64,000 bases of DNA from Candidatus Poribacteria bacterium (GCA_965197475.1 CBDANF010000003.1:3360001-3424000), one strand, 5' to 3'. Positions 20,397 to 63,889 are shown, counted from the first letter of the stretch. A program made the numbers and translations. The notes: generated by a model not told the origin, from the sequence alone.

Positions 20397-20824
20397 GGAG
20401 ACGTATCTATTTTAGCACGTCTCCGTTTTTGTGTAAATAAAATAAACAAATTGTAAGTAGTTGCACCTATTCTGTTTTGATGTGCGTTGTGCGCGAATAG
20501 AATAGGGATAACAAGCATTGCGGTGTCCGCGATGCAACAACAAAAGCCCGCGGCGAAACACTTCATAGAAACGAAGTGCACGTGCGGGCGCGAAAATACT
20601 GCAGCTTCTAACGTCTGCAATACGACCTTGTCCACTGAAATAATTAACAAATGTGAAGTGGGGGTAGTAACTAACAGTTAAAACGAAACCACCAGGTATT
20701 GTGTCAGAACAACCCTGTTCAGATAGCAAACATCTGAAATGTTCATTTTTGGAGGGTATTGGTTAAATAATGATGCAAGAATTAGCGGGATACCCTCTGA
20801 ACCGCGCTGCATCATATTTCAGTT
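20397..20824 (-). ncRNA. Candidate large structured leader RNA or ncRNA with pseudoknot
   Basis: Begins right after a consensus promoter; about nine stems plus an 8-bp pseudoknot, found by manual pairing (see findings). Confidence 0.6.
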
Positions 20825-62674: not shown

Positions 62675-62708
62675 CGTCTGTAGTTGCCTTGTGGGGTAAC
62701 TACAGACG
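62675..62708 (+). terminator. Hairpin after the stop codon (terminator or REP-like)
   Basis: Stem CGTCTGTAGTTGCC / GGTAACTACAGACG. Confidence 0.6.
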
Positions 62709-62896
62709 CTATTTACACGCATCATAATCGTGGTTTTATAACTTGCCCCTTGATATCCTCCTCTTTTTCTAAACTTTTAGTTCAATATGGTACGGTTTTT
62801 ACAAACCATTGGCATACTACGTCTAATGAAATAATACCATATAAATTTACGCAATGAGTAGTTTTGGACTTGATAAATTTGAGAAAAATTTTTCAC

Positions 62897-62925
62897 TTGA
62901 CAAAATCCTGCCAGTATAGTATCCT
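62897..62925 (+). promoter_or_regulatory. sigma70-type promoter
   Basis: TTGACA-17 bp-TATCCT. Confidence 0.7.
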
Positions 62926-62933
62926 ATTAACAT

Positions 62934-63012
62934 CACGAATTTTGGTAGAGAATGTTAGCCGCGTCGCAAGGCGCGGTCTCTACCTCAACCGCCTAACATC
63001 GGAAAATTCGTG
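62934..63012 (+). ncRNA. Candidate pseudoknotted structured RNA
   Basis: Four complementary pairings directly after the promoter (see findings). Confidence 0.55.
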
Positions 63013-63125
63013 TGTGTGAATTCGTGAATCAATGCAACACATTTCATATATTTTATGGACTCACACAATGGAGTCTTTGCATCTAAAACCCCATTGTGCT
63101 GTGTCCTATGCCAAAGGAGTTTAGG

Positions 63126-63588
63126 ATGCACAAAAAAGTTGGACCTGGTGGCGTTATTCTTAATCCTGTAAGCACACCACCGTGGGAATCACCAATAGAT
63201 GAGGTTATAATACCTCCAGCATTGTCACGTCCAGATGAATTTAAAACCAACTGGAAACAATTGTCGTTTTCATTCAAAGGTAGAATAAACCGAAAAGACT
63301 TTTGGATATATTTCTTAGGTACTGGTTTATTATACATAACTTTTTGGGGCATTTTTGATATATACAGTAGGTGAAATTGCGTATTACGCTTTTATGATAC
63401 CAATTAGTATCGTGAAATTCTTCTGGTGTGATAACGCTGTTATCGTGAAACGATGCCATGATTTTGGTAGATCTGCTTGGTATCTTATCCTATTTTACAT
63501 ACCTCCGATTGGTATAGTCATTTGGTTTATGCTTGCTTTCAGTAAAGGTGATCCCGAACCAAACAAGTATGGCAACCCACCTAAATAA
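63126..63588 (+). pseudogene. DUF805-family membrane protein; frameshift at ~63345
   Basis: FSFKGRINRKDFW in the first ORF; VKRCHDFGRSAW..GDPEPNKYG in the second. They join if one G is removed from TTTTGGGG. Confidence 0.85.
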
Positions 63589-63637: not shown

Positions 63638-63889
63638 ATGAATAATTTAGTCCAAGAACAACAAGGACAACTTCAACGAAAAGAAGATATTCAGAAAGGA
63701 GTAGCAGAACTTTTAATTACTCCACTTCTGGATGACCTTGAAAAAGCATATAACGATTTTAAAAGTAAAGATTTAAAATCTATCCATCAACTAACACAGG
63801 CTTTGAGTATATTTGTGAAAAAGACAAATGAAATTAATTCACAAGTTAGTTATGTGAATAGTGTTCTTAATTATCTTTCACAGAATTAA
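63638..63889 (+). CDS. Small hypothetical helical protein
   Basis: AAGGAG RBS preceded by the hairpin GAGGGGAC-TCT-GTCCCCTC; 83 aa. Confidence 0.65.
   Translation: MNNLVQEQQGQLQRKEDIQKGVAELLITPLLDDLEKAYNDFKSKDLKSIHQLTQALSIFVKKTNEINSQVSYVNSVLNYLSQN

Follow-up and report, generated by a model that had tools for sequence, protein, structure and literature searches.

A pseudoknotted leader RNA of mobile elements in Candidatus Poribacteria, with two candidate partners for its 5' strand

We describe a structured RNA family that has no catalogue entry and that serves as the 5' leader of mobile-element genes in Poribacteria, most often tnpB of IS605-type elements. The member studied here is encoded at 62934-63030 on the + strand of a stretch of 64,000 nucleotides (nt) from Candidatus Poribacteria bacterium (GCA_965197475.1 CBDANF010000003.1:3360001-3424000); the window denotes this whole stretch, in whose coordinates positions are given unless a locus or contig is named. 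The core of the RNA is ~80 nt long, or ~97 nt with a distal strand, S3. The fold comprises a closing stem (P1), a P2-P3 arm with a 7-nt bulge, and then a 3-base-pair (bp) hairpin (P4) whose loop pairs with the bulge, forming a loop-bulge pseudoknot and two linked three-way junctions. From the sequence, a sigma70 promoter close to consensus is predicted to drive rightward transcription of the RNA, whose 5'-terminal 8 to 10 nt, S1, are base-paired. S1 has two alternative partners, the proximal S2 and the distal S3, and we tentatively favor the view that this is a new cis-acting leader that controls downstream expression through S1:S2 versus S1:S3 pairing.

Covariation and constraint in the fold

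Evidence for the fold is apparent among its homologues. In an alignment of 68 hits of a covariance model, R1 (52 of them distinct, with the pseudoknot included), 90.5% of cells are paired compared to 73.2% after shuffling, a value that none of 500 shuffles reached, and 29 of 34 pairs have changed on both sides. Sliding the partner by one to three columns drops pairing to 30-46%. Changes on both sides are found in 5/8 pairs of P2 (99% of cells paired), 7/7 of P3 (98.4%), 6/7 of the pseudoknot (94.5%), 3/3 of P4 (89.4%), and 8/9 of P1 (73.6%), the last percentage being low because the alignment is out of register there. As MAFFT alignments were out of register in P1, this stem and the strands S2 and S3 were scored by a script. 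An earlier note on this DNA had placed the helices, the GCAA hairpin, the pseudoknot strands, and the promoter, all of which are where it put them, and its pseudoknot proves real, with homologues carrying compensatory changes among the 52 distinct sequences. P4 and the S2/S3 duplication are additional to that description, and it is the duplication that carries most of the mechanistic information.

Compensation can also be followed within one genome. The RNA stretch is present eight times in the genome of the window, four times at 100% identity (A copies) and four times at 90% (B copies). Between them the pseudoknot changes from AUGUUAG/CUAACAU (A) to AUGUUAC/GUAACAU (B), and P1 from AAUUUU/AAAAUU (A) to AACUUU/AAAGUU (B); divergent types add compensated changes in P2. 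The alternative GCGGU/ACCGC pairing raised in the note exists in the window copy and is not conserved, being lost in B (ACCAA), and 70 of the 80 parsed homologues have A instead of C directly after the P4 strand.

The + strand is the one under selection at the level of RNA, as indicated by ~77 G-U cells in the alignment, which would be A-C mismatches on the opposite strand, and by the asymmetry of the model score at the window RNA, 88.5 bits on + and 13.8 on -. The fold of the + strand has a free energy of -37.7 kcal/mol (z = -4.76), equaled by 0 of 200 shuffles; that of the - strand is weaker (z = -2.51), with 6 of 200 shuffles as good. Run unfiltered over the whole window, the model hit just 62935-63012, the next-best score being 18.7 bits, and the likeness to the region 20634-20824 that the note had seen is not upheld.

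Several positions are nearly fixed. Position 2 of the P3 loop is C in 88/88 sequences, a G-U step at the P3/P2 junction is near-invariant (G in 86/88, U in 85/88), and positions 2 (U) and 6 (A) of the pseudoknot hardly vary. The span from P2 to P2 is 41 nt in 88/94 sequences, and those with this span have 1 nt before the pseudoknot strand, none after it, and none on the 3' side. P4 is CCG/CGG in 41, CCA/UGG in 9, and CAG/CUG in 7 of the 80 parsed homologues. The P2 sequence is strongly conserved in the main subfamily, and its near-invariance is partly ascertainment because both the model and a sequence pattern used below select for P2.

Comparison to catalogues agrees with the novelty that the note had supposed. 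Rfam 15 (4227 models) gave no match at the gathering threshold in the 64-kb window, and at E <=10 on 62840-63140 the only hits, mir-5444 (E 3.1) and WT1-AS_7 (E 6.3), were minus-strand matches at chance level. Twenty related loci, scanned at the gathering score, yielded two tRNAs and nothing relevant. Literature searches of titles and abstract openings returned no description of this RNA, and targeted searches of the same kind returned nothing on a structured 5' leader controlling tnpB.

The 5' strand and its two partners

A TTGACA-like/TATAAT-like pair with a 16- to 18-nt spacer stands 5' of the RNA in 90 of 108 distinct loci, and in 77 of those 90 the -10 element ends 14-17 nt ahead of P2. 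With the usual start ~7 nt past the -10 element, S1 (8-9 nt) is the predicted 5' terminus of the transcript. In the window copy the distance from the -10 element to P2 is 19 nt, and 2-3 unpaired 5' nt are predicted. Transcription of the window RNA is consistent with contigs from four metatranscriptome runs that belong to a single study and carry the label sponge metagenome; these contain 46-89% of sampled words from the stretch. Contigs span the RNA (62910-63547, for example); they give no start, end, or strand, and DNA is a possible source. Neither an uncovered segment, 62694-62834, nor the contigs that start at 62960, just after the A/B variant base 62958, is evidence of an RNA end.

Pairing of S1 with both partners is far above control levels. 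S1:S2 pairing of at least 8 bp is found in 41/51 distinct homologues, compared to 8.5% in cross-pairing controls, which pair S1 of one locus with the downstream region of another, and S1:S3 pairing of at least 7 bp in 39/51, compared to 9.4%. There are 32 different S1 9-mers among these 51 sequences. S1 and S3 covary within the IS1595 lineage, too, where CACGAAUU, CAUGAAAAC, and CACAAUAC occur with matching S2 and S3. Across 107 loci, 85 have both S2 and S3, 11 have S2 only, and 11 lack S2.

The placement of S3 relative to genes is the main reason for considering translation. An open reading frame (ORF) of at least 60 codons, mostly tnpB, starts inside S3 in 43/107 loci. Of these 43, 37 have a tetramer resembling a Shine-Dalgarno sequence (SD) in the S2-S3 interval, compared to 6 of the 42 loci that have S3 without such an ORF; tnpB-type loci have their SD in this interval and the AUG inside S3. 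When each pairing was forced, with the pseudoknot ignored, the S1:S2 fold was the lower one in 13 of 14 examples, by 1.1-13.2 kcal/mol, and the single exception favored S1:S3 by 0.4 kcal/mol, which makes S1:S3 a plausible near-lying alternative, not the ground state. Under the proposed mechanism, the folded pseudoknotted domain would hold S1 on S2, a decoy, leaving the start site in S3 free and translation on. Were the domain not stabilized, S1 would move to S3, occluding the start codon and turning translation off. Candidates for shifting the balance are a ligand, a protein, ions, temperature, or the kinetics of cotranscriptional folding.

A number of points weigh against such control. S1:S2 is favored by more than 6 kcal/mol in 7 of the examples, and the modeled energies could allow an RNA that is constitutively on. 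No long ORF starts in S3 in 42 of the 85 loci with S3, the window included; S3 covaries with S1 even where no gene starts there, so masking of a start codon is not the whole role of S3. For such control no ligand, protein, or condition can be named, and the leader serves selfish or accessory genes instead of the coherent metabolic set typical of classical riboswitches. Transcription and the 5' end are predicted, processing would be putative, and the contigs from RNA runs may contain DNA. Finally, one array of three units without a downstream ORF, described below, fits a free-standing RNA better than a leader.

For the window copy itself, the most likely role is that of a promoter with 5'-end protection, switching being vestigial or achieved by another route. 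This promoter-plus-stabilizer reading is the safer one because there is no SD near S3 and the start of the downstream gene, which encodes a DUF805 protein, is ~100 nt further downstream. A GUG ORF that starts in S3 (63024-63086) was set aside as noncoding, having no SD, A/B indels that are not multiples of three, and lengths of 3-27 codons. The 30-codon upstream ORF that the note had reported (63032-63124) exists as an ORF and is spurious as a gene: it also lacks an SD, is absent from the 90%-identical B copies, and has A/B indels that are not multiples of three.

Genes, elements, and genomes that carry the leader

To survey the genes served, downstream ORFs of at least 60 amino acids (aa), present in 91 of the 108 distinct loci, were scanned with Pfam, the other 17 loci being left out. 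OrfB_IS605 was matched by 33 and the TNB domain of TnpB by 31, followed by GIY-YIG (4), N6_N4_Mtase (2), and DUF805 (2); the remainder mostly have no family, with single matches that include MvaI/BcnI, the CAP12/Pycsar TIR domain, and AbiJ. The order in tnpB-type loci is left-end hairpin, promoter, RNA, tnpB, tail, and right-end hairpin. An inverted repeat of the IS1595 type is found upstream in 20/108 loci, and the same leader stands ahead of GIY-YIG nuclease genes and of left-end cargo genes in IS1595-family elements. The cis-regulatory switch of the note survives as a novel structured RNA at or next to +1, not as a single-locus switch of DUF805 but as a portable 5' module of mobile elements. 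A role as the hairpin recognized by the TnpA of IS200/IS605 was rejected, as hairpins with CTTTAG loops (e.g., CCCAATC-CTTTAG-GTTTGGG) lie upstream of the promoter and after tnpB, and the RNA is separate from them.

Small basic peptides recur among the cargo. In several IS1595-type elements (the type D element, described below, at 3094210-3096480 of contig C3 of G000, the genome of the window, and loci L015 and L161), the first ORF after the RNA encodes a very basic peptide of ~43 aa, MAKKATGTRVRDAKDGRF..., and at other loci an unrelated 44-aa basic coiled-coil peptide, MATSRAQYRLKRAQ..., follows the RNA. Either could be a nucleic-acid binder.

The window copy belongs to an element of ~2.3 kb that runs from 62850 to ~65147, beyond the end of the window, with boundaries defined by four copies at ~100% identity with common ends (Table 1). 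The RNA lies ~85 nt inside the left 28-nt inverted repeat, in keeping with the tie to accessory DNA that the note had drawn: it is inside an IS1595-family element with cargo. Two features assign the element to this family: a transposase with a zinc ribbon at its N terminus and a DDE domain like that of ISXO2, and inverted repeats at the ends of several sharply bounded copies. The transposase, on the opposite strand, matches Zn_ribbon_IS1595 (2.2e-9) and, in two ORFs, DDE_Tnp_IS1595 (5.5e-14 and 6.2e-12); in the A-type element it is split into 204 + 74 aa, the DDE profile being interrupted between positions 75 and 97. The DUF805 gene is likewise in two frames, of 92 + 77 aa, that break at a run of five T's (63341-63345). 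In contigs of two RNA runs (X3 and X4) one T is missing at 63341, and the ORFs would then join into a single DUF805 protein of ~153 aa; the split, common to all four A copies, reflects either a true pseudogene variant or an assembly error in the homopolymer. The B copies share both ends and the RNA with A and have different cargo.

Table 1. Features of the leader and its element in the window
Feature	Position	Strand	Sequence	Basis or remark
Left terminal inverted repeat	62850-62877		CGCAATGAGTAGTTTTGGACTTGATAAA	Reverse complement at L009 3120-3147; 28 nt, perfect
Sigma70-type promoter, -35	62897-62902	+	TTGACA	17-nt spacer to -10
Sigma70-type promoter, -10	62920-62925	+	TATCCT	
S1, 5' strand of P1	62934-62943	+	CACGAAUUUU	Sequence; at or a few nt from the predicted transcript start
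P2, 5' strand	62944-62951	+	GGUAGAGA	Sequence, covariation
Pseudoknot, 5' strand	62952-62958	+	AUGUUAG	7-nt bulge between P2 and P3
P3 hairpin	62959-62976	+	CCGCGUC-GCAA-GGCGCGG	
P2, 3' strand	62977-62984	+	UCUCUACC	Sequence, covariation
P4 mini-hairpin	62989-62991 / 63000-63002	+	CCG / CGG	3 bp
P4 loop	62992-62999		C + CUAACAU	Holds the 3' pseudoknot strand
Pseudoknot, 3' strand	62993-62999	+	CUAACAU	Complementary to AUGUUAG
S2, proximal 3' partner of S1	63003-63012	+	AAAAUUCGUG	Closes P1
S3, distal second copy of the S1 partner	63018-63027	+	GAAUUCGUGA	Starts 5 nt after S2
S3 with conserved tail	63018-63030		AUC/ACC tail	
Second leader hairpin	63064-63098	+	Stem CACAAUGG ... CCAUUGUG, loop CUUUGCAUCUA	A/B comparison
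SD of the DUF805 gene	63114-63119	+	AAGGAG	
DUF805 cargo gene (with SD)	63114-63588	+		ATG at 63126; Pfam DUF805 on both pieces
Second cargo ORF	63638-63889	+		83 aa; no Pfam family
Split transposase	~64049-64929	-		L009 2049-2929; beyond window end

Further structure is found downstream of S3 in some leaders. The second hairpin of the window leader (seen also at ~1690-1740 of L005) has a loop, CUUUGCAUYUA, and a 5' flank that are common to types A and B, and stems that are wholly different, CACAAUGG/CCAUUGUG in A and CAGCGACAUAAUAA/UUAUUACAUCGCUG in B; the hairpin is seen in these two types only. IS1595-type leaders (for example L005, L011, L016, L018, and type D) share a conserved motif, GUU(U)AAC(A/G)U(A/C)U, 8-12 nt past S3, which resembles UUAACAUCA directly 5' of S1. 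Immediately to the right of the element and outside the window, at L009 3266-4513, there is another insertion sequence of ~1.25 kb with ORFs of 96 + 276 aa and more than 25 genome copies at 98-99% identity, which we take to be IS3-like.

The leader is widespread among relatives of the window's genome. BLAST found the stretch in 23/36 other genomes of the genus, and model R1 found 15 copies in the window's genome, with hits in 33/40 genomes of the genus and 87/151 genomes sampled from the class. By family, these are 75/98 genomes in the window's own family and 11/25 in one other, all of one genus, with none in the 27 genomes of the seven remaining families of the class. An exact IUPAC pattern, which matches 37/52 known sequences and for which ~4 chance hits are expected, located more than 92 stretches in the genome collection; among the matches listed, 80/80 are titled Candidatus or uncultured Poribacteria, and 80/80 are also model hits. 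The pattern further located 9 stretches in 241 million metagenome records and 6 in viral contigs; in 3 of the 4 viral-contig stretches examined, the RNA precedes GIY-YIG genes and follows a perfect TTGACA-N17-TATAAT promoter. A structure descriptor that recovers 16/22 known loci, with a background of 2 positions in 617,162 nt, gave one hit, AT-rich and probably false, in a phage-biased sample of 80 viral-contig TnpB loci of other origins (28-38% identity). A restriction to Poribacteria would thus mean that none was found elsewhere in what was searched, the searches of other phyla having fixed the P2 sequence.

Divergent members broaden the family within the window's genome, which holds at least 28 copies, 15 by the model and 13 divergent. 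The sole tnpB with a TNB domain in this genome has a leader of equal architecture and different sequence, with P2 GGCAGACA/UGUCUGCC, a bulge UAAUGAG that pairs with CUCAUUA, tandem S2/S3, and an AUG 2 nt past S3 (z = -4.54; 33 bits with R1). A second divergent leader of the tnpB type, at G000:C3:2864909 (-), lies 2.75 kb from the first and, there being one TNB-domain match in the genome, probably precedes a truncated or decayed tnpB. The descriptor, which also picked up this second leader, added 10 copies of type D, with P2 GGGCAGGA/UCCUGCCC, and 1 copy of type E, with P2 GUCAGGG/CCCUGAC. In the one type D copy examined, the RNA is just inside the same left inverted repeat, which flanks type D elements, and that element has an intact 327-aa ORF, taken as its transposase (G000:C3 ~3095300-3096300), whose N-terminal sequence is closely similar to that of the A type; the other nine adjoin transposase copies of 84% identity. 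A GC-rich palindromic repeat, CCCCTTGATAAGGGGGGTTAGGGGGG ... CCCCCTAAATCCCCCTTATCA, of about a dozen copies (for example at G000 C2:1139924, C2:1141453, C3:494102, and C3:3336892) gave false positives with the descriptor.

The exception to single units is at ~1190-1440 of L190 (- strand; G014:C144), where three RNA units with a variant P2, GGUAGCGA, follow one another with an 84-nt period behind one TTGACA/TATAAT promoter. The array strand has no ORF downstream; a transporter gene that runs toward the array ends ~190 nt from it. A ToxI-like RNA of a type III toxin-antitoxin system, in which tandem pseudoknotted repeats precede an endoribonuclease toxin gene, was considered and rejected, as this is the one such array, it has no downstream ORF, and the other loci have single units.

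Possible roles and comparison with known systems

Several explanations for the leader can be weighed against control by alternative pairing. Chief among them is a constitutive 5' module that does not switch, which we regard as unlikely though it deserves serious consideration: a very stable structure at +1 would shield the transcript from 5'-end-dependent decay and insulate it from upstream read-through, and the redundancy of S2 and S3 would keep the 5' end paired with or without a ribosome on S3. The location of S1 at the predicted +1, the lower energy of the S1:S2 state in nearly all examples, the unrelated genes served (TnpB, GIY-YIG, methylases, DUF805, and small ORFs), and leaders that lie ~100 nt from a start codon, as in the window, all suit such a module. 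Yet a simple hairpin would suffice for this purpose; the covarying pseudoknot, the P4 hairpin, and loop positions that hardly vary point to a particular tertiary structure or partner, and the SD between S2 and S3 in 37/43 tnpB-type loci looks made for control of the start site. More improbable is a function in trans or as a sink for protein, with the RNA serving either as a protein-binding module or, once processed, with S1 as a seed against the S3-like start regions of sister copies, a form of copy-number control like that of insertion-sequence antisense RNAs. The tandem array, the conservation of P2, the complementarity of S1 to the start region common to sister tnpB copies, and the 28 copies in one genome might be so explained, but the predicted ground state locks S1 into P1, the conservation of P2 is partly ascertainment and is broken by compensated changes in divergent types, and there is a single array and no identified partner protein.

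The remaining explanations have little probability. The antisense-type regulator and the ribozyme-like RNA named in the note are minority readings, and a small self-cleaving ribozyme, by analogy with what we take to be a permuted pistol-like topology, would be very improbable. Its compact pseudoknotted fold, near-invariant positions, including the G-U step at the P3/P2 junction, and association with mobile elements, as known for several ribozyme classes, are what might be expected of one; against this, no ribozyme family of Rfam matches at E <=10, the P2/P3 junction has no unpaired nt on its 3' side and only 1 between P2 and the pseudoknot strand, and contigs from the RNA runs span the junction intact, which is weak evidence. 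About as improbable, or slightly more so, is a leader for processive antitermination that modifies RNA polymerase and carries transcription past hairpins within the element and beyond the element's end. It would act from just such a position, with a strong promoter directly ahead of it in phage-like as well as transposon settings, and tnpB transcripts must pass the right-end hairpin to make guide RNA, but nothing speaks for it specifically, and it leaves the S2/S3 duplication and the placement of SD and AUG unexplained. Least probable of all is a signal at the DNA level, such as a binding site for transposase or TnpA or a single-stranded structure used in transposition. The RNA does lie near element ends, ~85 nt from the IS1595 inverted repeat and ~60-70 nt downstream of the left-end hairpin; however, the IS605-type end hairpins are separate and outside the promoter, the same RNA is found in elements of unrelated transposition chemistry (DDE in IS1595 versus IS605-type) and at GIY-YIG genes, and the G-U wobbles, strand-asymmetric model score, and fixed distance from the promoter argue for RNA.

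Control by the choice of S1 between S2 and S3 can be extended into a bolder and doubtful proposal, a new class of switch in which the loop-bulge pseudoknot would sense a small molecule, or a protein from the element or its host, and gate TnpB and other mobile-element nucleases through the decoy versus the start site, the whole being passed between unrelated transposon families as a cassette. Cas12 descends from TnpB, itself a compact nuclease for genome editing, and a tnpB start codon caught in a two-way pairing choice offers a testable handle on how elements limit or time production of the nuclease. The decoy-strand design, with one strand and two identical partners, is an unusual expression platform. 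One module shared by IS605-type elements, IS1595-type elements, and GIY-YIG genes suggests that control elements are exchangeable like cargo. The leader is also a well-supported addition to the RNA families of Poribacteria, an uncultivated phylum that RNA catalogues cover poorly.

Among known structures, the topology of this RNA is presumably a circular permutation of the pistol ribozyme plan. In both, two stacked helices flank an internal loop, the 5' side of which pairs with a hairpin loop; the order of parts differs by the permutation. Pistol keeps catalytic and cleavage-site nucleotides in such places, with conserved unpaired nucleotides on either side of the pseudoknot strand and a cleavage dinucleotide in the 3' side of the internal loop, and the RNA described here has no unpaired nt where, by our understanding of pistol, those residues sit.

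Other RNAs are known beside tnpB. The IS605-orfB-I and -II RNA motifs are conserved structures next to IS605 orfB (tnpB) genes and, if in Rfam 15, do not match this RNA (at E <=10 in the window region or at the gathering score in the 20 loci). The omega RNA, or reRNA, is at the 3' end of tnpB, spans the right end of the element, and includes the guide, whereas this RNA is 5' of the gene. Pairing between the leader and the omega-RNA tail was examined and rejected, the longest complementarity being 6-9 nt and never above the maximum of 30 shuffles in 29/29 loci. In IS1341-type elements, sense-overlapping 3' transcripts place a structured noncoding RNA in the tnpB unit, as outlined in PMC4615843. 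The group I intron of IStrons, as outlined in PMC4227781 and 10.64898/2026.03.11.711047, is a structured RNA upstream of tnpB inside the element. Such introns are several hundred nt long and belong to the group I family of Rfam, whereas this RNA is ~80 nt and has no group I match.

Closer in function is the leader of IS200 tnpA, in which a stem sequesters the ribosome-binding site. The structured 5' end of that transcript restrains the initiation of translation and can also persist, as a small structured RNA, as outlined in 10.1101/2024.06.26.600842. The likeness is that of a structured 5' end on an insertion-sequence transcript, with no similarity of sequence or model. The IS200 leader is a simple stem-loop that serves tnpA, whereas this RNA serves tnpB or cargo with a pseudoknotted double three-way junction and a decoy strand. 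Translational riboswitches offer the other comparison. A covarying, sensor-like domain closed by P1 is found here, as expected of a structured aptamer (29/34 pairs; 0/500 shuffles), and in the 43/107 loci with a gene start in S3, a strand of P1 can take an alternative partner that contains the start codon; predicted energies favor S1:S2 in 13 of 14 examples, and 42 loci have S3 but no gene start in it. The differences are that this RNA serves no metabolic gene set, matches no riboswitch family of Rfam 15, has no known ligand, and lets the 5' strand of P1 choose between two identical 3' partners, which is not the usual anti-sequestor logic. By analogy, the RNA may best be regarded as a structured cis-acting leader of mobile elements whose nearest relatives in function are the IS200 tnpA leader and translational riboswitches.

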